Part shown: in pieces, positions 6,547 to 33,099 of the stretch
Position numbering within the stretch: the first letter of the stretch is position 1
Layout: every line of letters begins with the position of its first letter
Source: Patescibacteria group bacterium
GTDB lineage: Bacteria > Patescibacteriota > Minisyncoccia > Phycocordibacterales > Phycocordibacteraceae
Assembly: GCA_018826905.1 (NCBI GenBank)
Contig: JAHJYC010000003.1
Span: 36,963 to 100,962 of the forward strand
DNA: 64,000 nucleotides
Direction: 5' to 3'
Position numbers and translations under genes: made by a program
Notes under the pieces: generated by a model
Seen by the model: only the letters and a program-made list of their open reading frames with translations
What the model was told of the DNA's origin: nothing
Database searches by the model: none

Positions 6547-7926
6547 TTACGCTTCGTCTCTTGCTTCCTCAGCGTCAGACACGCTTTCATTGCCATCATC
6601 TGTCTGTGTTGTCTCCTCTTCCATAGACAGGGTGTTGTTCGCAGGAGCTTCTTCTGTAACTACAGACTCAGATTCTGTTGGGTCAATACCAGCTGCAACA
6701 GCAGGGTCCATATCCTCAGCTGCTTCAGTAGCGGCAACAGATTCGTCAGACGCACCCTCAACTGCAGCGGCATTTCCTGAGTCAGCAACGCTTTCGCCAC
6801 CTACTGCTGCGATATCAATGTTCCAGCCAGTAAGCTTTGCGGCGAGTCGTACATTTTGTCCGCCTCGTCCGATAGCAAGTGACTGCTGATCTTCAGATAC
6901 GGTCACTGTTGCACGGTGTCCTTCCTCGTCTATCTCAACATCAAGCACTGTTGCAGGGGAGAGAGATTCTTTAATAAAGGCTGCCTGGTCTTCAGACCAC
7001 TCAATAATATCAATGCGCTCTCCGCCAAGGGCGGCCATAACGGTAGACACACGAACTCCACGCTGTCCGACGAGTGATCCAACCGGATCAACATGTGGAT
7101 CAAGAGAAGCAATCGCAATCTTTGTACGGCTTCCTGGTTCGCGCGCGAGACCCTTTACTTCAATTGCGCCAGAAGCTAGTTCAGGCACTTCCATCTCAAA
7201 CAGGCGAGTGAGGAAGCGAGGGTGACTGCGTGAAAGACGCAGGTACACACCGCGGAATCCCTCGTCTACTGCATAGAGGTAAGCACTGATGCGCTCTCCG
7301 GTGCGGTAGCGCTCTCCTGGGATCTGCTCCTCGTAGGGAATGATTCCTGTCGCGCGTCCAAGGTCCACAAAGATAGCGCCGCGCTCAGCGCGCTGCACAA
7401 TACCGGTAACGATTTCACCCTTCTTGTGACCGAACTCGTCCAGGATAGAAAGCTTCTCAGCTTCGCGGATCTTTTGAATAACCACCTGCTTTGCTGTCTG
7501 TGCTGCAATACGTCCAAAATCATCCTGTGGCTCAAGAGGGAAGATAAGTTCTTGTCCCACTTCAGCGTCGCGCTTAATACGCTTCGCGTCTTCAATAAGG
7601 ATGTGCTTCTCAGCATCATAACGAGGAAGTTCTCCCTCAGCGACAACCTCCTCTCGTTCGTAGTGAGGGTGTGCTTCAGGAAGCTCCTCTTCTCCCTCTT
7701 CAGGGAAACGCACCATCGTGTCGTCCACAATAGTTTTTACTTGTTCAAATGACACAGTTCCTGTGTCCATATCAAGCATGCCGCGTACTACCTGTCCGCG
7801 CTTCCCGTACTCCTTCTTGTAGGCAGTAGCCATGGCCTGCTCAATAGCATCCACCATAGTTTCCTTGGTGATGCCACGCTCTTCAAATTCTCCGAGCACT
7901 GAGTTGATTGTTTTTAGATCCAACAT
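6547..7926 (-). CDS. nusA: transcription termination/antitermination factor NusA with acidic C-terminal extension
   Basis: 459 aa; N-terminal NusA domain, S1, two KH domains (SLAIGRGGQNVRLAAKLTGWNIDI); D/E-rich tail. Confidence 0.9.
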   Translation of the reverse strand: MLDLKTINSVLGEFEERGITKETMVDAIEQAMATAYKKEYGKRGQVVRGMLDMDTGTVSFEQVKTIVDDTMVRFPEEGEEELPEAHPHYEREEVVAEGELPRYDAEKHILIEDAKRIKRDAEVGQELIFPLEPQDDFGRIAAQTAKQVVIQKIREAEKLSILDEFGHKKGEIVTGIVQRAERGAIFVDLGRATGIIPYEEQIPGERYRTGERISAYLYAVDEGFRGVYLRLSRSHPRFLTRLFEMEVPELASGAIEVKGLAREPGSRTKIAIASLDPHVDPVGSLVGQRGVRVSTVMAALGGERIDIIEWSEDQAAFIKESLSPATVLDVEIDEEGHRATVTVSEDQQSLAIGRGGQNVRLAAKLTGWNIDIAAVGGESVADSGNAAAVEGASDESVAATEAAEDMDPAVAAGIDPTESESVVTEEAPANNTLSMEEETTQTDDGNESVSDAEEARDEA

Positions 7927-8197
7927 ACTTCTCTGTATTTAGTTGTTCGCACTATAGATGATTGTAATCGCACAGGGCTTTCTTAAAAAGAAATGCCCGC
8001 GGGAGCGGACAATTCAGATAGGCAAAAGGTACCATTTTAGGAGGGAAGGGTCAATAAGGGACTTGACACATATATTAATATATGTACTACTGTGTCCAGG
8101 TCCGCGTATATGGAACCTAGTTTCCTTACAACTCACACCAGTGACTTGTAGAGCATTGTTCTTTGCAGTCACATCGCCTCAAGGAGGGGCAAAACAC

Positions 8198-8614
8198 ATG
8201 CGTACCACCGGTTTCAACACCTGGATGCAGAACAAGAAGGTCCAGACGGCCGCCGTGGCCGCCTGTAGCCTGATCCTCGGCGCCGTCGGCCATGCGATCA
8301 TCACGCCCGAGCCGGTCATCGCCGCCCCGCTGCCCGTCGAGTTCCGCGTCGGTCCCGGCGAGAGTCCGGCCAAATACGTCGGGAACATGACGGCCATCGC
8401 CCTGGGCGATGCCTGCAAGCTCCCGATCTATCTGGGTCAACAGCAGATCCGCAACCATGAGATCACGGCGCAGGAGGCCCGTGGCCACATGGCCGTTACT
8501 CGGAACTTCACCGACATCGTCCAGATCACGGTCGGCGTCCATCCGGACGCCAGGTTCCAGATCGTCGGCTCGACCATCACCTGCCCCGACGGCACCGTGG
8601 TCGGCGAAGGCTGA
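8198..8614 (+). CDS. high-GC (~65-70%, GC3 ~90%) small secreted protein, 138 aa, two Cys; no recognisable family
   Basis: ATG at 8198 preceded by aaggagggg SD; signal peptide MRTTGFNTWMQNKKVQTAAVAACSLILGAVGHA; sharp GC jump relative to flanks; own terminator. Confidence 0.6.
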   Translation: MRTTGFNTWMQNKKVQTAAVAACSLILGAVGHAIITPEPVIAAPLPVEFRVGPGESPAKYVGNMTAIALGDACKLPIYLGQQQIRNHEITAQEARGHMAVTRNFTDIVQITVGVHPDARFQIVGSTITCPDGTVVGEG

Positions 8615-8640
8615 TCTGCGACTGACTGCTACAAGAAAAA

Positions 8641-8682
8641 GCGCCCCGCAACTCCGGTTGTGTGGGCGTTTTCCTTTTTCAT
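8641..8682 (+). terminator. rho-independent terminator of the high-GC cassette
   Basis: gcgccccgcaactccggttgtgtgggcgttttcctttttc. Confidence 0.65.
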
Positions 8683-8735
8683 ACACATATATAGGTACGA
8701 GTGAATTGAGGGTGCTGCGTTATACTTTCTAAAGC

Positions 8736-10490
8736 ATGCAGGTATCTGAAAGCGAACTCAAAGAATTCATTCTTGATTCCGGACTTGTTCCTCGGAAGGA
8801 TGTTGAGGCTGCAGACGAGGAGGCAAAGAAGAAGAAACAATCTCTTGGAGATATTCTTATTGCCCAAGGTGCGCTCTCCACTGATTCTTTGCGACGCATT
8901 AAAGCATATGTGCTCGGTATTCCGTTCGTTAATTTGAAGGATAGGAAGATTCCTTTGGAAGTACTCTCTCTTATTCCTGAACCAATTGCTCGCACGCACT
9001 CCATCGTTGCCTTCCGCAAAGGAGAAGGAGAACTTGAGGTGGCAATGCTAGATACAGAAGATTTGCCTGCGATTGATTCCGTGCGTAAGACAACAGGACT
9101 TAAGATTCAGGCGAGGCTTACAGACGAAGACTCTCTGAAGAATGTTCTTTTGCAGTACCAGAAGTCTTTGAAGGAAGAGTTCGGCGACCTCATTTCAACT
9201 GAAGCAGGGAAGATTAACCTTATAAAGGATGCAGTTGAGGGAGACGAGACCTCTGGAGAGGATCTTAAGAAGATGGCTGAGGATCTTCCTATTGTACGTA
9301 TTGTTGATACTTTGCTCCGACACGCCATTATTCAGAAGGCATCTGACATTCATATTGAGCCAATGGAGCACGAGGTGTTGGTGCGGTATCGTATTGACGG
9401 TGTGTTGCATGATGCTATGACCCTGCCACGCACTGCTGCAGCTGGTATTACCGCTCGTATTAAAGTGCTTGCGAACTTGAAGCTAGACGAGAAGCGTCTT
9501 CCACAAGACGGACGATTCAAGATGGAAACGGAGACGGATAAGGTCTCGTTCCGTGTGTCTATGCTCCCTACGTATTTTGGAGAGAAGATCGTTATGCGTT
9601 TGCTTCGCGAAACGGGAGAGGGCTTTACCCTTGATGTGCTCGGGTTTCATGGAGATTCCATGGAGCGTATCCATAAGGCAACAAAAGCATCAACGGGACT
9701 CATTCTTATTTCAGGACCAACAGGATCAGGAAAGACAACAACCCTCTATACCATTCTGGATATTTTAAATACTCCTGATGTGAACATAAGTACCGTTGAG
9801 GATCCAATTGAGTACCAGATGAAGCGAGTAAATCAGACACAGGTGAACCCTGCGATTGGGTTTACCTTCGCAAATGGACTCCGTTCTCTCGTTCGTCAGG
9901 ACCCAGACGTTATTATGGTAGGAGAGATTCGTGACGGTGAGACTGCGTCACTTGCGATTAACGCTGCACTTACGGGACACTTAGTGCTCTCAACCATTCA
10001 CACTAACTCAGCAGCAGGTGCAATCCCTCGTCTTATGGATATGGGGGTTGAGCCCTTTCTTCTCGTGTCTACACTTCGCGTTATTGTGGGTCAACGACTT
10101 GTGCGTAGACTGTGCGATGGAAAGGAGCAGTATTCGCTAGATGCTGAAGAGCGCGCAAAGGTTGCAGGTACTGACAAGTTTGATGCAGTACTCAAGGCAC
10201 TCACAGACGAGAAGCTTGTAAAGGCAGGAAGCGGACTTGATGACGTGCCGTTCTATAAACCAACTCCTTCAGCTCAGTGTGAGGATGGATATTCAGGACG
10301 TATTGGTATTCATGAAGTACTCTCAGTCACTCCAACCATTCGTGATTTGATTTTGCATAATGGAACAACTGACGCTATAGAGGAACAGGCACGCAAAGAG
10401 GGCATGCTTACTATGCTTGAGGATGGAATCTATAAGGCAACAAGAGGAGTTACCTCAATTGAAGAGGTATTGCGTGCTGTTACGGAGTAG
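8736..10490 (+). CDS. pilB: type IV pilus assembly ATPase PilB (GspE family)
   Basis: 584 aa; N-terminal GSPII_E_N domain; Walker A GPTGSGKTTT; Asp and His boxes; ...VGEIRD... Confidence 0.9.
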   Translation: MQVSESELKEFILDSGLVPRKDVEAADEEAKKKKQSLGDILIAQGALSTDSLRRIKAYVLGIPFVNLKDRKIPLEVLSLIPEPIARTHSIVAFRKGEGELEVAMLDTEDLPAIDSVRKTTGLKIQARLTDEDSLKNVLLQYQKSLKEEFGDLISTEAGKINLIKDAVEGDETSGEDLKKMAEDLPIVRIVDTLLRHAIIQKASDIHIEPMEHEVLVRYRIDGVLHDAMTLPRTAAAGITARIKVLANLKLDEKRLPQDGRFKMETETDKVSFRVSMLPTYFGEKIVMRLLRETGEGFTLDVLGFHGDSMERIHKATKASTGLILISGPTGSGKTTTLYTILDILNTPDVNISTVEDPIEYQMKRVNQTQVNPAIGFTFANGLRSLVRQDPDVIMVGEIRDGETASLAINAALTGHLVLSTIHTNSAAGAIPRLMDMGVEPFLLVSTLRVIVGQRLVRRLCDGKEQYSLDAEERAKVAGTDKFDAVLKALTDEKLVKAGSGLDDVPFYKPTPSAQCEDGYSGRIGIHEVLSVTPTIRDLILHNGTTDAIEEQARKEGMLTMLEDGIYKATRGVTSIEEVLRAVTE

Positions 10491-10570: not shown

Positions 10571-10927
10571 ATGAGTAAGGTGTTTGTTGGAATCCTGGTG
10601 TCCGCGTTTTTGGGCGTCATCGTCTATTCGCTCGGCGCCCACTACTTCGGCACCGCGATCATGCCGGGCGGTGAACAGCCGAGTCTGTTCGCGCCGACGC
10701 TGCAGTGGCTGGTCGCCGCGGTGGGAGCGGTCGCCATCTACATGGCGGCCGACGTGGTCGCTTCGGGCGTGCTCGCCATCATCCTGTTCGTCGTCGCCCT
10801 CGTTGTGGGCGGGACGCTGCAGGTCGGCTGGGAGTCCTGGCTCTGGGCTGCTGTCGCTGCCGCCATCGGCGCCACGCTCGGCAACCTGTTCGTTCCGGTT
10901 CAGCGCGGGACCGTGAGCGCCCAGTAG
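10571..10927 (+). CDS. high-GC small polytopic membrane protein, 118 aa (3-4 TM), unknown family
   Basis: gggaggtacc SD 5 nt before ATG; GC3 nearly all G/C; hydrophobic segments VGILVSAFLGVIVYSL, LVAAVGAVAIYMAADVVASGVLAIILFVVALVVGG, LWAAVAAAIGATLGNLFV. Confidence 0.55.
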   Translation: MSKVFVGILVSAFLGVIVYSLGAHYFGTAIMPGGEQPSLFAPTLQWLVAAVGAVAIYMAADVVASGVLAIILFVVALVVGGTLQVGWESWLWAAVAAAIGATLGNLFVPVQRGTVSAQ

Positions 10928-11013: not shown

Positions 11014-11032
11014 GCATGCTACGATTATGTAC

Positions 11033-12244
11033 ATGAAATTTCGTGTCACCGTTAAGACCGCAGAGGGGAGCGAGGAGAAGCGAGTCGTTGAAGCAGCGTC
11101 TCGCTTTGGTGTGTACTCTGAAATAGAAAAAGAAGGAGCAACAGTGCTCTCTGTTGAAGACGGTGCGGGGACAAAGATGCCGAAGTGGAGTGAGATAACT
11201 ATCGGAACAGGAGTGAAGATGGATGAGCGGATTACGTTTACCAAAAACTTGGCAGCAATGATCTCTGCTGGACTCACACTCTCGCGTGCACTCTCTGTTA
11301 TTGAACGCCAATCAACAAACAAGGCACTGAAGAAAATTGTTATAGACCTTGAGGAGCGAGTGAAGAAGGGAGATGCATTCCATGAAGCACTGGCCGGGCA
11401 CTCAAAGGTCTTCTCTGAACTCTTTATTGCGATGACTAAGGCGGGGGAAGAGTCTGGAACGCTTGCGGAGTCGCTTACGGTTGTGGCTAGTCAGATGGAT
11501 AAGGCCAATTCGCTTCAGAAGAAAGTGAAGGGTGCGATGATTTACCCGTCTATCATTCTGTCTGCCGTGGTGGTGATTGGTATTCTTATGCTTATTTATG
11601 TAGTGCCAACACTTTCAAATACATTTAAGGAACTTGGAGTGGAGTTACCAGCTGCCACGAAAGCAATTGTGAATACCTCAGACTTTATGGCAAACAATGT
11701 TGCCTTGGTGTTCGGACTCCTTATTGGCTTCTTTGGAGGGCTCTATTTCTTCCTTAAATCCAAGGTGGGGGGAAAGACACTTCTGTTCGTGTCTTTACGT
11801 CTTCCTATAATTGGGGAGCTTGTAAGAGAAACTATGAGTGCGCGTGGTGCTCGTGCACTCTCATCCCTCCTTTCTTCAGGGGTAGAAATGTTATCTGCAC
11901 TTAAAATCACAAGTGAGGTAGTGGGAGATAATGTGTTTGGAAAAGTGGTTGATGAAGCATCTGAGCGAGTACGAAAGGGAGAAGCACTTTCCGCTGCGTT
12001 CACCGATCATCCAAAGCTGTATCCTATTTTTGTTGCAGACATGATTGCTGTTGGAGAAGAGACAGGAAAGGTTGCAGACATGTTGGGACAAGTTGCGCAG
12101 TACTACGAGACTGATGTAGAAGATCGTACGAAAGACCTCTCAACAATTATTGAGCCAGTGCTCATGCTTGTTATCGGAACGGTTGTAGGTATCTTTGCGA
12201 TGTCTATGATTTCTCCGATCTACTCTCTCTCGGACAAGATTTAA
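11033..12244 (+). CDS. pilC: type IV pilus assembly platform protein PilC (GspF family)
   Basis: T2SSF-like domains with three TM segments; ATG start chosen at MKFRV... (the ORF track begins at an upstream TTG). Confidence 0.85.
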   Translation: MKFRVTVKTAEGSEEKRVVEAASRFGVYSEIEKEGATVLSVEDGAGTKMPKWSEITIGTGVKMDERITFTKNLAAMISAGLTLSRALSVIERQSTNKALKKIVIDLEERVKKGDAFHEALAGHSKVFSELFIAMTKAGEESGTLAESLTVVASQMDKANSLQKKVKGAMIYPSIILSAVVVIGILMLIYVVPTLSNTFKELGVELPAATKAIVNTSDFMANNVALVFGLLIGFFGGLYFFLKSKVGGKTLLFVSLRLPIIGELVRETMSARGARALSSLLSSGVEMLSALKITSEVVGDNVFGKVVDEASERVRKGEALSAAFTDHPKLYPIFVADMIAVGEETGKVADMLGQVAQYYETDVEDRTKDLSTIIEPVLMLVIGTVVGIFAMSMISPIYSLSDKI

Positions 12245-29009: not shown

Positions 29010-30041
29010 GTGTATAATTATCCGAATGGGAACACTCGGTCCGAAACGAGCACCAAAGACATGATAACGAATGATCTGTACTCCAAAATTCTCCTAGAAC
29101 CCGCCGAAAGGGGAGGCGATGAATTGTTTATTGTCAGCGGATATGCGTCTGCCACATTTGCAAGACGTCACTTAAAAGATTTGTCTGAACGCAAAGAAGA
29201 CACAAAAATAAACCTAATTATTGGGATGCCAAAGAATACGGTGGACCATAATGCCTATTTACAACTGCACACTGAATTTGGCAACAGGTTTCGTGGCTAC
29301 TACCTGAAGTCAACGCCACCAGTCCATAGTAAAGTGTTCACTTGGTTTAATTCAGGCAAACCTCAAGAGGCATACAGCGGTTCTGCCAACTATAGTCAGT
29401 ATGGCTTTTTTGAGGACAAGCAAAGAAACCAGATGGTTAGTGACAACTCTATAGAAATAAAAAATTTCTTTGATGATCTGCTGAGTTCATCCATATTTAT
29501 GCCGCATGCTGAGATAGATAACTCAGCAGTCTTCTACAGGGTACAGAAAGTTCATGGAAGTGTACCGGCAGGAGGCGTAGAGTGGATAGAGTTAGGGAAA
29601 ACAGTGAGAATTAGTTTCCTAGATAAAAAGGGTATGTTGCCTCCAGTTTCAGGACTGAACTGGGGACAGAGGAAAGAGAAGAGAATAAACAAAGGAACGG
29701 GTGAAGTAAAATATGTGCTACGAGAAAAGAACCAAGCGTACTTGAGTTTAAAGGGTGATGTTAGAGAAGAAGGTTTCCTTCCTAAGATGGCATATAACTT
29801 CACTTTACTAACCGATGACAACGCTTCCTTTGATTGCGTAGTTGCACAGGAGGGCAGGAAAGCAATTCATTCTACAAATGACAACAGTGAACTAGGTAGG
29901 TATTTTCGTAAAAGACTAGGGCTTGAGCCAGGAGCTTTTGTTACAGTTGAAGACTTGGAGCGATACGGAAGAACCGACTATACTTTGTCTAAAATTGACG
30001 ATGAGAACTTCCTATTGGATTTTTCCGTAAAGCCAAATTAA
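29010..30041 (+). CDS. Type II restriction endonuclease, phospholipase-D (HKD) superfamily, BfiI/NgoFVII-like, with C-terminal DNA-binding region
   Basis: DELFIVSGYAS... and HSKVFTWFNS...GSANYS correspond to BfiI TLYLISGFSN... / HAKLYG...SSGNFT (HxK...GSxN); more likely start is ATG 29060 (MITNDLY) downstream of a TGTATAAT -10 at 29011-29018; 3' end overlaps the convergent MTase by 4 nt. Confidence 0.65.
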   Translation: MYNYPNGNTRSETSTKDMITNDLYSKILLEPAERGGDELFIVSGYASATFARRHLKDLSERKEDTKINLIIGMPKNTVDHNAYLQLHTEFGNRFRGYYLKSTPPVHSKVFTWFNSGKPQEAYSGSANYSQYGFFEDKQRNQMVSDNSIEIKNFFDDLLSSSIFMPHAEIDNSAVFYRVQKVHGSVPAGGVEWIELGKTVRISFLDKKGMLPPVSGLNWGQRKEKRINKGTGEVKYVLREKNQAYLSLKGDVREEGFLPKMAYNFTLLTDDNASFDCVVAQEGRKAIHSTNDNSELGRYFRKRLGLEPGAFVTVEDLERYGRTDYTLSKIDDENFLLDFSVKPN

Positions 30042-31135
30042 AAAATATCGTTTTTAATTTCTTCAATAGAGAATTTAGAATCTACCGACGGGTAAGGGAT
30101 CCCTGCAAAAGTCTTAAGAACAGCTTCTACAATTATTTTTGCACCAAGCGGAGGTACCGCCATGCCTATTTGCTTTCTTACACTCTCCTTTGGGCCTTTA
30201 AAAATAAAATTGTCAGGGAAGCTCTGTATTCGGGCCCTTTCGCGGTTTGTAAGTGCACGTGGTTCTATCCAGTGATACACATGTGTGCCACCACCTCCGC
30301 TTCCTGTGATTGTGTAAGATGGCTTATTGGGATCAAGACGCTTATAAATTTGGCTCATCTTAGCTCCTTTGACATTAAGTCGAAGATGTTTAGGGAGACC
30401 TTCATACCACGCGTTTTCGCCGGCAGGAATATGCAAAAGACGTTCAATTACGTGAGTAGCTTGCTTAGTGTGTTCATTATTGGACACTTCTTTGGGTATT
30501 GGCGGCTTCTCAAGGGCCATCTTTGCTGTGACAGGTTTATTCTTTGTGGTTGGAGCAGGAATTCTGAACTCAAGTCCTTGGTCTTTTCTTATCCCAATAA
30601 TTACAACGCGGTGCCTTTGTTGAGGAACGCCATATTCCTCGAATTTATATAGATGAGGGTATAGATTGTATCCCTTACCTGCAGCCTGAAGATCGGTAAG
30701 AATTTTCTTAAAGGCCTCACCTCCGTTTGCGCTCTGTAGACCGCCAACATTTTCAGCAAAAAACCATAGAGGGTTATGTTCATTTATTGCTTTTACACCA
30801 TATGTATAAAGGGGACCATATTTGCCGTTAAATCCTTTCTGCTTGCCAACTAAACTGAAATCGTTGCATGGAAAACCAAAAGCCAAGGCATCAAATTTAG
30901 GGATTTTTTTGAAATCAACTTTTTCAACAGGGCCACAGAAGACTCTTTTCTGGTTACCATGATGTATGTTTAACGCGTATGTTTGGCAGGTGTCCTCATC
31001 AATATCATTGGCCCAAACTGGAACTACCTTATACACAGCATTGCCTTTTTTCACCTCTGCCATGGAGGCGCCAAGACTTAGACCGCCTGGGCCACAGAAC
31101 AGCTCGGCAAAACGGAATTCTACCTTCTTTTTCAT
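30038..31135 (-). CDS. DNA (cytosine-5)-methyltransferase
   Basis: Motif I FCGPGG, motif IV PCNDFS, motif VI ENV, C-terminal motifs; start taken at MKKKVEF. Confidence 0.9.
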   Translation of the reverse strand: MKKKVEFRFAELFCGPGGLSLGASMAEVKKGNAVYKVVPVWANDIDEDTCQTYALNIHHGNQKRVFCGPVEKVDFKKIPKFDALAFGFPCNDFSLVGKQKGFNGKYGPLYTYGVKAINEHNPLWFFAENVGGLQSANGGEAFKKILTDLQAAGKGYNLYPHLYKFEEYGVPQQRHRVVIIGIRKDQGLEFRIPAPTTKNKPVTAKMALEKPPIPKEVSNNEHTKQATHVIERLLHIPAGENAWYEGLPKHLRLNVKGAKMSQIYKRLDPNKPSYTITGSGGGGTHVYHWIEPRALTNRERARIQSFPDNFIFKGPKESVRKQIGMAVPPLGAKIIVEAVLKTFAGIPYPSVDSKFSIEEIKNDIF

Positions 31136-31185
31136 AATAAGAATCCTAGCACTATAGTAATAATTTTGCAGCAACGAAATTTAAG

Positions 31186-32380: not shown

Positions 32381-32632
32381 ATGACCAAGACACAGACCAA
32401 AGAAGAGGTCTTCAACTTCATGAACCGTCTGGGCCTGATCATCGCCATCACGGGTGTTCTGGTGATGGTGCCCGGCGCCTATCTGACCCTCCACGTCGCC
32501 TTCTTCGGCGTCGCGGACCCGGCCGTCACCGGCGCCCTCATCTTCGGTTCCTACCTGGGTGGCGGCGCTACGCTGGCCGTCGGGCTGGCCCTCAAGGGCA
32601 TCGCCTGGGTCACCCGCTTCGGCTGGCACTGA
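32381..32632 (+). CDS. high-GC small 2-TM membrane protein (83 aa)
   Basis: gaggaggg SD; MTKTQTKEEVFNFMNRLGLIIAITGVLVMVPGAYL...; GC3 biased. Confidence 0.5.
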   Translation: MTKTQTKEEVFNFMNRLGLIIAITGVLVMVPGAYLTLHVAFFGVADPAVTGALIFGSYLGGGATLAVGLALKGIAWVTRFGWH

Positions 32633-32889: not shown

Positions 32890-33099
32890 ATGTCGCTTAA
32901 GAAGATGCTTGGTGTTCCGGTGCTGATTTCGGCCGGGCTCGCGCTCATCATCGCTGCCACCAATACGATCGCACATGCAGGTGGCGCGAAGACGCCCGAA
33001 GACCAGCTGGTGATCGCCTTCGGTCTCGGCGTCGGGATCTGTATCCTTTTCGGTGCTGGTTTTCTGGCCGCCTGGCCGAAGAATCCTCAGCAGCCCTGA
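32890..33099 (+). CDS. high-GC small 2-TM membrane / secreted protein (69 aa)
   Basis: aaggagggaagagag SD; MSLKKMLGVPVLISAGLALIIAATNTIAHAGG... Confidence 0.5.
   Translation: MSLKKMLGVPVLISAGLALIIAATNTIAHAGGAKTPEDQLVIAFGLGVGICILFGAGFLAAWPKNPQQP

Follow-up and report, generated by a model that had tools for sequence, protein, structure and literature searches.

A GC-rich, moron-like gene module between nusA and pilB in a patescibacterial genome: its borders, its product and its possible origin

How does a single small gene, much richer in G+C than its neighbours, come to lie between two conserved genes that abut in many related species? The question is raised by positions 7,927 to 8,735 of the window, by which we mean the whole stretch of 64,000 nucleotides analysed here (contig JAHJYC010000003.1 of assembly GCA_018826905.1, positions 36,963 to 100,962), from a member of the Patescibacteria, or Candidate Phyla Radiation (CPR). 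These bacteria have tiny, streamlined genomes and are attached to other cells, and the variation of their surfaces is poorly understood. At this locus nusA (6547-7926, minus strand) and pilB (8736-10490, plus strand) form a divergent pair around cassette 1, whose open reading frame (ORF), called cas1 here, has an ATG start and encodes 138 aa (8198-8614, plus strand). A first-pass annotation had described a secreted protein with two cysteines, encoded by a high-GC cassette flanked by a 10-bp direct repeat that resembled a target-site duplication. We consider it rather probable that cas1 is a moron-like, horizontally exchanged module for a surface protein, that it derives from GC-rich relatives, and that it is replaced as one unit from promoter to terminator.

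Occupancy of the nusA-pilB site and borders of the unit

The basic layout that had been predicted is confirmed, with the divergent nusA and pilB, the 138-aa ORF between them, a strong Shine-Dalgarno (SD) sequence and an intrinsic terminator. The ORF itself is present, its start having been set one base off, and the remaining ORFs listed in the interval are spurious, overlapping cas1 on the opposite strand or in a different frame. The locus is not an assembly chimera, since it recurs with 100% identity in an assembly made independently from run SRR10598219. The high GC content also stands: the ORF has a GC of 0.655, with values of 0.62, 0.48 and 0.87 at the first, second and third codon positions (GC1, GC2 and GC3). 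Its GC3 is far beyond chance when compared with the 0.42-0.50 of nusA and pilB, and every other long ORF of the window lies between 0.35 and 0.57.

A PilB scan of species-representative genomes returned 80 genomes of the Paceibacterota/Kaiserbacteria type, in 66 of which the divergent nusA-pilB interval could be measured. The gap is empty (144-291 bp) in 24 of these 66 species, which supports the idea of a cassette: a self-contained GC-rich unit has been placed between genes that are direct neighbours in many related species. Empty gaps carry the hairpin of the nusA leader (...AAAGAAAGCCCGCGGGTGCGGACA...), the GTCAA of the nusA -35 element and the TATACT of the pilB -10 element just before the pilB start. 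In other relatives the gap is filled by small genes that are unrelated and bring along a promoter, SD and terminator of their own; they encode, for example, a 95-aa lipoprotein (L033), small transmembrane (TM) proteins (L015, L016) and RTX-like repeat proteins (L011, L019). Among the 224 ORFs in occupied gaps, remote similarity to cas1 was found only for a 185-aa ORF of L008 (hhalign 62%, E = 7.6e-5). The cas1 family itself occupies the nusA-pilB site in six lineages, the window genome and those labelled L001, L087, L003, L089 and L005, over a range of PilB identities of 79-95%.

Pairs of lineages with different alleles reveal where the unit begins and ends. The replaceable module spans 8070 to 8660 on the plus strand and comprises the promoter spacer, the 5' untranslated region (UTR), the ORF and most of the terminator; over this span the identity to relatives with another allele collapses. 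Between the window and L087 identity is 73-88% in the flanks and 31-61% from about 8070 to about 8660. In a sliding comparison of L003 with L089 it runs at 90-96% through nusA and its leader, falls to 13-60% from the promoter spacer to the terminator, and is back to 76-93% from the 3' half of the terminator onward. Because identity drops sharply at both borders, the unit of replacement is the segment from promoter to terminator. Within the variable unit one can still recognise the TTGAC of the -35 element, a hairpin in the 5' UTR and the 3' half of the terminator.

The history of cas1 disagrees with that of its hosts. In identity matrices of NusA, PilB and cas1 for the six lineages, the first two proteins group the hosts as ((window, L001), L087, L005) and (L003, L089), and cas1 is discordant with this grouping. 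PilB is 93% identical both between the window and L087 and between L003 and L089, where cas1 is 39% and 32% identical, respectively; L003 and L005 share 66% at cas1 with 82% at PilB, and the window and L001 share 89% at cas1 with 95% at PilB. For the last pair, the synonymous divergence (dS) of cas1 is 0.17, its nonsynonymous divergence (dN) 0.057 and dN/dS 0.33, whereas nusA, ppa, pilB and pilC have a dS of 1.0-1.5 and a dN of 0.03-0.06; outside the ORF, the unit is 86-96% identical, compared with 50-60% in other intergenic regions. Third-position identity is 0.73 in the first 60 codons of nusA and 0.77 in the first 30 codons of pilB, and mostly 0.4-0.7 further into these genes. This fits a segment of about 1.1 kb that the window and L001 have shared more recently than the rest of their genomes. 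The opposite is seen in cassette 5, another GC3-rich unit of the window described below: relative to its counterpart in the same relative's genome (GCA_018826945.1; 72% amino acid identity) its dS is 1.18, compared with 0.44-0.74 in the flanking ribosomal-protein genes. Since dS is low in cas1 and high in cassette 5, coalescence times are uncoupled from the flanks in both directions, and since cassette 5 behaves in the opposite way, a low dS is not a general property of these units.

We propose that DNA would be taken up from related lineages and integrated by a double crossover in the conserved flanks, with nusA and its leader as the left arm and the 3' half of the terminator, the ACACATATATAGG block and pilB as the right arm. 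Close relatives would accordingly come to hold, at the same site, deeply diverged alleles, unrelated genes for small exported proteins, or nothing. The GC-rich codon usage would be the signature of a GC-rich donor lineage of the same radiation, now decaying in a low-GC host, and the product would be a surface protein kept variable by diversifying pressure, whether from phage, from the host cell or from kin, and might share its regulation with the adjacent type IV pilus genes. If so, surface variation in these bacteria could follow a route in which self-regulated, single-gene modules that encode exported proteins come to lie between essential genes, even those of a ribosomal-protein operon, and are swapped between lineages with the conserved neighbours serving as homology arms.

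Regulatory parts and product of the unit

The cassette appears to be an autonomous transcription unit with its own promoter and terminator, and in the proposed mechanism positions 8063-8680 would act as such between the divergent nusA and pilB promoters of this member of the Paceibacterota (Patescibacteria). The candidate cassette promoter (8063-8090, plus strand), read from sequence, consists of a -35 TTGACA (8063-8068) and, after a spacer of 16 nt, a degenerate -10 TACTAC (8085-8090). A consensus promoter scanner made no call here, the -10 lacking its final T; the same position reads TATTAT in L001 and L003 and TATACT in L005, and the TTGAC of the -35 is invariant across the six alleles. The spacer is filled by a perfect 18-nt palindrome, ACATATATTAATATATGT (8068-8085; two arms of 9 nt, 100% complementary), which resembles an operator, and a related perfect palindrome, ATACATATATATGTAT, is present in L005. 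Transcription would start from the TTGACA promoter and might be gated by a dimeric regulator bound to the palindrome.

The 5' UTR contains a hairpin (8141-8172, plus strand) formed by GUGACU-U-GUAGAG, a loop of 7 nt and CUUUGC-AGUCAC. Each of the six alleles forms it independently on folding, 95.6% of its cells are paired as against 39-51% in slid controls, and there are three compensatory (doubly changed) pairs on the unrefined alignment and four on a hand-made structural one. Rfam gave no match to it when 7927-8740 was scanned at E <= 1. It would act on mRNA stability or on translation. We also considered it as a feature common to all cassettes and rejected this, the motif being found only at cassette 1. 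Downstream of it, the SD sequence AAGGAGGGG (8181-8189, plus strand) lies 8 nt before the cas1 ATG, and a purine-rich, SD-like stretch (GGAGG or GGAAGG) takes the same position in all six alleles. The intrinsic terminator (8639-8680, plus strand) has the stem AAAGCGCCCCGCAAC/GUUGUGUGGGCGUUU, with the hairpin at 8639-8671 and a T-run to 8680 (-25 kcal/mol, z = -3.55), and its 3' half, GCGTTTTC, is invariant in the six lineages.

The flanks on either side are conserved. On the left, a putative nusA promoter, assigned by consensus (8026-8054, minus strand; -35 TTGACC at 8054-8049, 17-nt spacer, -10 TACCTT at 8031-8026), stands back to back with the cassette promoter, and there the conserved left flank ends; its GTCAA is invariant in the six lineages and at the empty sites. 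Between it and nusA, a hairpin with a U-run (7994-8011, minus strand) gives a terminator-like match (-14.3 kcal/mol, z = -4.7). This hairpin of the nusA 5' leader, with the sequence UGUCCGCUCCCGCGGGCA UUUCUUUUU, is conserved in all relatives examined, those with empty sites included; it is part of the conserved left flank, outside the cassette, and looks like an autoregulatory attenuator of NusA. On the right, the pilB -10 hexamer TATACT (8721-8726, plus strand) lies 9 nt before the pilB ATG and is invariant at all cas1-bearing loci and at most of the empty-site relatives shown. We observed that pilB (8721-8738) has no SD, and that pilC (11015-11035) apparently lacks one likewise, with a -10-like hexamer about 9 nt before its start. 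This suggests that the mRNA of pilB, and apparently also that of pilC, is leaderless or has a very short leader. Over the whole 64-kb window no Rfam family reached its gathering threshold, and ARAGORN found no tRNA or tmRNA, despite many ribosomal-protein and translation genes.

cas1 is a real coding gene: its GC3 exceeds its GC1, which exceeds its GC2, its length is conserved in homologues, and its dN/dS relative to L001 is 0.33. In the encoded precursor a leader or anchor takes up about residues 1-34; it is followed by a Pro-rich linker and then by an alpha/beta domain of about 90 aa. At the N-terminus, R2, K13 and K14 accompany a hydrophobic stretch of about residues 16-34, followed by G-H-A and then TPEPVIAAPLP, and a Sec-type signal peptide or an uncleaved N-terminal anchor is plausible. 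The two cysteines of the first-pass annotation are present in the mature part, as C73 and C129, both in the domain; the precursor has three, since C23 lies in the hydrophobic leader. C73 and C129 occur together in eight family members and are both missing in nearly all others, and this covariation suggests that they probably form a disulphide bond. A type IV pilin or pseudopilin was considered and rejected: the N-terminus, MRTTGFNTWMQNKKVQTAAV..., has no Glu at +5 and has polar residues after G-F, and homologues lack the G-F.

The family had not been recognised in the first-pass annotation, and we can name it no better: neither cas1 nor the proteins of the four other cassettes gave anything above threshold in Pfam, NCBIfam, PHROGs or PADLOC. 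A word-indexed search of 5.8 billion proteins returned three clusters, with 90%, 57% and 57% identity, all at the nusA-pilB site, and a profile search of 1.84 billion representatives gave 33 matches at E <= 1e-3, of which P0004 (L087) and P0005 (L089) sit at this site. The window cas1 scores 114 bits against the family hidden Markov model. The remaining members are of 100-370 aa, with the cas1 region as a C-terminal domain of about 80 aa, and share the core motif F-x-I-x2-GEGL-x2-YV ... LP-L/I-Y-x-G ... TD-x-VQVTV ... GD-x-F. Many of the long forms start with a lipobox or a TM helix. Ten members that were scanned have no Pfam domain, ten clusters that were looked up have no informative source name, a PDB sequence search with the family profile found nothing, and a later word-indexed protein search with a profile of 35 sequences added no members. 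The scan of metagenome contigs for further alleles returned only the already known L004 contig, and scans of viral contigs gave no relatives of cas1 or cassette 5. We conclude that cas1 belongs to a rare, unnamed domain family.

The domain folds confidently in prediction. As AlphaFold with four sequences performed poorly (predicted local distance difference test, pLDDT, 59), we used only the model from the 35-sequence alignment, which has a mean pLDDT of 81.8 and means of 86-97 for blocks of ten residues over residues 41-130, mostly above 90. The predicted order of secondary structure elements is beta-alpha-alpha-beta-alpha-alpha-beta-beta-beta. Foldseek found no neighbour for either model in PDB or BFVD (best E about 1). 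Because the longer members of the family are mostly lipoproteins, we infer that the cas1 domain works outside the cytoplasmic membrane, as an extracytoplasmic domain that would be tethered to the surface or secreted; export would follow the Sec-type leader, cleaved or kept as an anchor, and the domain would be locked by C73-C129. The protein family and the 5' UTR hairpin are undescribed, whereas the class of mechanism is familiar. The locus thus yields an uncharacterised extracytoplasmic domain that folds confidently and has no structural neighbour in the libraries used, and a conserved 5' UTR hairpin with covariation.

The short repeat, the GC-rich composition and rival explanations

The 10-bp repeat exists exactly as had been reported: ACACATATAT occurs at 8066-8075 and at 8683-8692, and a third exact copy is found nowhere in the 64 kb. 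It is natural to think of a mobile cassette that integrated in a transposition-like manner and duplicated a 10-bp target, as two exact copies stand one near either end of the variable module and many relatives are without the gene. We nevertheless regard this as very improbable, given what the two copies are. The upstream one (8066-8075, plus strand) overlaps the last three bases of the cassette -35 and runs into the spacer palindrome. It is specific to the window genome: in the closest relative, L001, whose NusA and PilB are 95% identical to those of the window, ACACATAATT stands at this position, and the spacers of L087, L003, L089 and L005 differ again and are unrelated. The downstream copy is a piece of a conserved 21-nt block, CATACACATATATAGGTACGA (8680-8700, plus strand), with which the right flank begins. 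Its sequence is the same, or almost so, in the window, L001, L087, L003 and L089, where it lies 53 nt upstream of pilB, although the last four have a cas1 only 29-89% identical to that of the window; the block is absent in L005, and ATATAGGTAC is located near pilB in L016. Lineages whose intergenic DNA has for the rest diverged strongly already had the gene before they separated, and over that time a scar under no selection could not have remained perfect. Empty sites with a single copy of the 10-mer had been suggested as a check, and there are none: ACACATATAT has no match in the 24 relatives with a gap of 144-291 bp, whose PilB is at most 81% identical. A search of the find_repeats type for inverted repeats in 7900-8800 gave no terminal inverted repeats, and the ORF list between nusA and pilB contains no transposase or integrase gene adjoining the unit. 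Pairs of this spacing are also common, as the window has 125 exact 10-mer pairs 300-1000 bp apart, compared with about 50 under a first-order Markov null.

What the two copies have in common is their character, as two instances of an AT-rich motif of promoter or operator type and not a target-site duplication, the upstream copy having become perfect only in the window genome. With one mismatch allowed, the 10-mer has 5 matches for 2.3 expected, a number reached by 8 of 100 shuffles. Its 8-mer core ACATATAK is enriched 4.7-fold in the window, with 9 copies for 1.9 expected and none of 100 shuffles reaching 9 (positions 111, 8068, 8078 on the minus strand, 8685, 32814, 44148, 48378, and 49737 and 50562 on the minus strand). 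At least 5 of the 9 are intergenic and promoter-like, including those at the promoters of cassettes 4 and 5, and the core often lies directly 3' of a TTGACA or TTTACA resembling a -35 element. This organism may use the core as a promoter-spacer or operator motif. The first-pass annotation had allowed that the protein might match a conserved CPR family, or that the 10-mer might be common throughout the genome. What we find lies between: a recurrent family in small-genome contexts that is rare and unnamed, and an exact 10-mer that occurs only twice in the window and has a common core. A short flanking repeat is a tempting misreading as an insertion scar, and is corrected here.

The composition of the gene bears on where it came from. 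The codon usage of the cassettes is typical of GC-rich genomes (Ile ATC 0.94 against 0.32, Gly GGC 0.60 against 0.11, Pro CCA 0 against 0.49), and GC-rich lineages exist in the clade, with a pilB GC3 of up to 0.92; those with cas1 carry it at 0.93-0.95. Polarised third-position changes since the split of the window and L001 number 8 from GC to AT, 0 from AT to GC and 6 swaps between G and C, a pattern that would correspond to a GC-rich import decaying in an AT-biased host, although it concerns 14 sites only and the parsimony polarisation used GC-rich outgroups, which biases it towards GC ancestors. The GC3 excess seems to travel with the family: distant members have a GC3 of 0.72-0.78 next to neighbours at 0.33-0.45 (L091 6001-6837, beside secDF; L094 58-417, beside purE; L099 622-1377, downstream of a PilB-like gene). 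Searches of the literature turned up no pertinent report of GC-rich islets in CPR genomes. The GC3 anomaly (0.87 against about 0.45) is a marker with which such modules can be found genome-wide, and it allows the donor signature to be tested against explanations by selection or gene conversion.

Such an explanation is that cas1 is a vertically inherited, very fast-evolving resident gene, whose high GC3 and low dS are kept in place either by synonymous selection (for mRNA structure or stability, or for a codon programme of exported proteins) or by GC-biased conversion at a recombination hot spot. The gene does keep one site in the six lineages over the whole range of PilB identity, its GC3 is 0.87-0.95 whatever that of the host (0.43-0.80), and the distant members are GC3-rich in low-GC genomes. 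The bias is common to all five unrelated small exported or membrane cassette genes and is not seen in other small membrane genes, and with a dN/dS near 0.8-0.9 at depth the synonymous sites look constrained. Variation in rate, however, cannot give 32% identity at cas1 with 93% at PilB beside 89% with 95%, and the sharp borders of the module are left unexplained. Synonymous constraint is not general to the cassettes, since the dS of cassette 5 is above that of its flanks, and the 8:0 third-position changes from GC to AT are unbalanced. By our own estimate, selection that holds GC3 at 0.9 would lower dS by a factor of about 2-3 and not of 6-8. We also rejected gene conversion at the crossover zones, as GC3 does not rise at the 5' ends of nusA or pilB, in the flanking zones where conversion would act. 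We judge a resident gene unlikely. That cas1 is dedicated to the type IV pilus as an accessory component, either associated with the pilus or an assembly factor, seems to us quite improbable. Such a role would account for the constant position directly upstream of pilB in six lineages, for the distant member P0014 just downstream of a PilB-like gene, and for the ACATATAT-type motif in the cas1 promoter and upstream of pilB; yet the gene is missing from most relatives that keep the pilB-pilC cluster, its product has no prepilin motif (G, then FxxxE), other members of the family adjoin secDF, purE or lipoprotein genes, and equivalent GC-rich cassettes sit in ribosomal-protein operons. It is hardly credible that the GC-rich stretch is a structured RNA, a chimeric assembly or a gene in antisense (8126-8686, minus strand, 186 aa). 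Each of the four loci examined does have an antisense frame that stays open for 177-198 codons, and the sense-frame synonymous sites are unusually conserved, but an open frame aligned with the sense codons is expected at a GC3 of about 0.9, antisense stops being sense TTA, CTA and TCA, and we rejected the 186-aa ORF as a shadow frame of this kind. It is the sense frame that has the order of GC3, GC1 and GC2, the SD and the ATG, that differs by 8, 7 and 18 changes at the three codon positions, and that encodes a family of 33 profile members with a confident fold. A structured RNA has no Rfam match in its favour, and against a chimera the gene is found in six other assemblies, besides the independent assembly with the identical sequence.

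The exchange of a GC-rich module, which we prefer to these alternatives, meets several observations that weigh against it. The GC3 of cas1 exceeds that of the host even in GC-rich hosts (0.93-0.95 against 0.70-0.84), a force intrinsic to the family could explain the GC3-rich distant members in low-GC genomes, and no donor genome was identified. The edges of the recombination tract between the window and L001 are soft, not sharp, and the only ground for invoking natural transformation in these organisms is the presence of pilus genes. The degenerate -10 of the window (TACTAC; TATTAT in L001) leaves the expression level in the window genome uncertain, and export, disulphide bond and surface role are all predicted.

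Other GC-rich units and known systems

The window contains four further small GC3-rich ORFs (GC3 of about 0.75-0.86 compared with about 0.45 for the genome), encoding membrane or exported proteins and each apparently with its own SD and terminator: one between pilB and pilC (10571-10927), two between rpsG and fusA (32381-32632 and 32890-33099) and one between rplE and rpsN (48453/48462-48944). The last of these, cassette 5, lies inside a ribosomal-protein operon; its product is a lipoprotein (LALSAC), and GCA_018826945.1 carries it at the corresponding site. Of 77 relatives, 46 have no more than 40 bp between pilB and pilC. In L001, cassette 2 is a tandem duplication (8374-8712 and 8888-9244) with paralogues of 112 aa and 118 aa and GC3 of 0.93 and 0.76, where the window has a single copy. 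Elsewhere in the window, an island of low GC (29010-31174, with values as low as 0.36) contains an ORF resembling C5 DNA methyltransferases (30038-31174, minus strand, motif FAELFCGPGG) and a convergent ORF of 343 aa, and is probably a horizontally acquired restriction-modification pair.

It is a speculative and on the whole doubtful extension that the five GC3-rich units form an undescribed class of chromosomal "morons" in Patescibacteria, exchanged via arms of housekeeping genes and with a GC-rich equilibrium of their own. Such modules, each running from promoter to terminator, would be small units for envelope proteins placed between highly conserved housekeeping genes that serve as recombination arms; they would pass between species and belong to a shared accessory pool with a GC-rich equilibrium, possibly kept by selection and not just inherited from donors, and cas1, with a new fold and a conserved regulatory hairpin in its 5' UTR, would be the founding example. 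The interest of the locus would rise if the five units proved to be a general exchangeable class in Patescibacteria.

Several known systems resemble the cas1 unit in part. Insertion sequences and miniature inverted-repeat transposable elements with a target-site duplication share with it a short direct repeat near both ends, in the window genome only; in contrast to theirs, the repeat is not conserved in the carriers of cas1, whose unit has no terminal inverted repeats or transposase and in which the copies look like promoter or operator elements. Integron cassettes are likewise small, with a single ORF, and variable in content at a fixed site. They are usually promoterless, end in attC and lie next to an integrase/attI platform, whereas the cas1 unit brings a -35 TTGACA promoter of its own and ends in an ordinary terminator of G+C hairpin and U-run; there is no attC-like element within 7900-8800, no other inverted repeat at the 3' end of the unit and no integrase gene adjoining it, the neighbours being nusA and pilB. 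The pilA allele-group locus of Pseudomonas aeruginosa is a hypervariable, horizontally exchanged gene beside pilB, and cas1 is also a variable, exchanged gene immediately next to the pilB of a type IV pilus. Unlike pilA, cas1 does not encode a pilin (the product lacks a prepilin motif and differs in fold), it is co-directional with pilB, and most relatives are without it.

The closest parallels are in the mode of replacement and in the architecture of the unit. Replacement-type flexible genomic islands and hypervariable surface loci are known from the population genomics of marine and halophilic prokaryotes. The cas1 site resembles them in its fixed position, its divergent or non-homologous contents, its sharp borders and the disagreement between alleles and hosts in the identity matrices of six lineages, and may do so in its products as well, since exposure of cas1 at the surface would fit the leader, the lipoboxes of long-form relatives and the Cys pair. 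It differs from them in being a single gene of about 0.6 kb, not a multi-gene island, and in that the unit holds conserved regulatory parts and is strongly enriched in GC3 relative to its host. Phage morons (e.g., HK97 gene 15; Cumby et al. 2012, PMC3594210) have a promoter and a terminator of their own and a differing GC content, and lie between otherwise adjacent genes. The cas1 unit departs from them in that it lies in a chromosome (among nusA, ppa, pilB and pilC), has no PHROG match and no relative on viral contigs, and shows successive replacement of alleles at its site instead of simple presence or absence. Yet like a moron it is an independent transcription unit with its own promoter and terminator, predicted in the case of cas1; it is placed between genes that are adjacent in relatives (24 of 66 for cas1); its deviating GC implies horizontal transfer; and its product is a small membrane or exported protein. 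By analogy, the cas1 unit may thus be seen as a chromosomal counterpart of the phage moron in its architecture.

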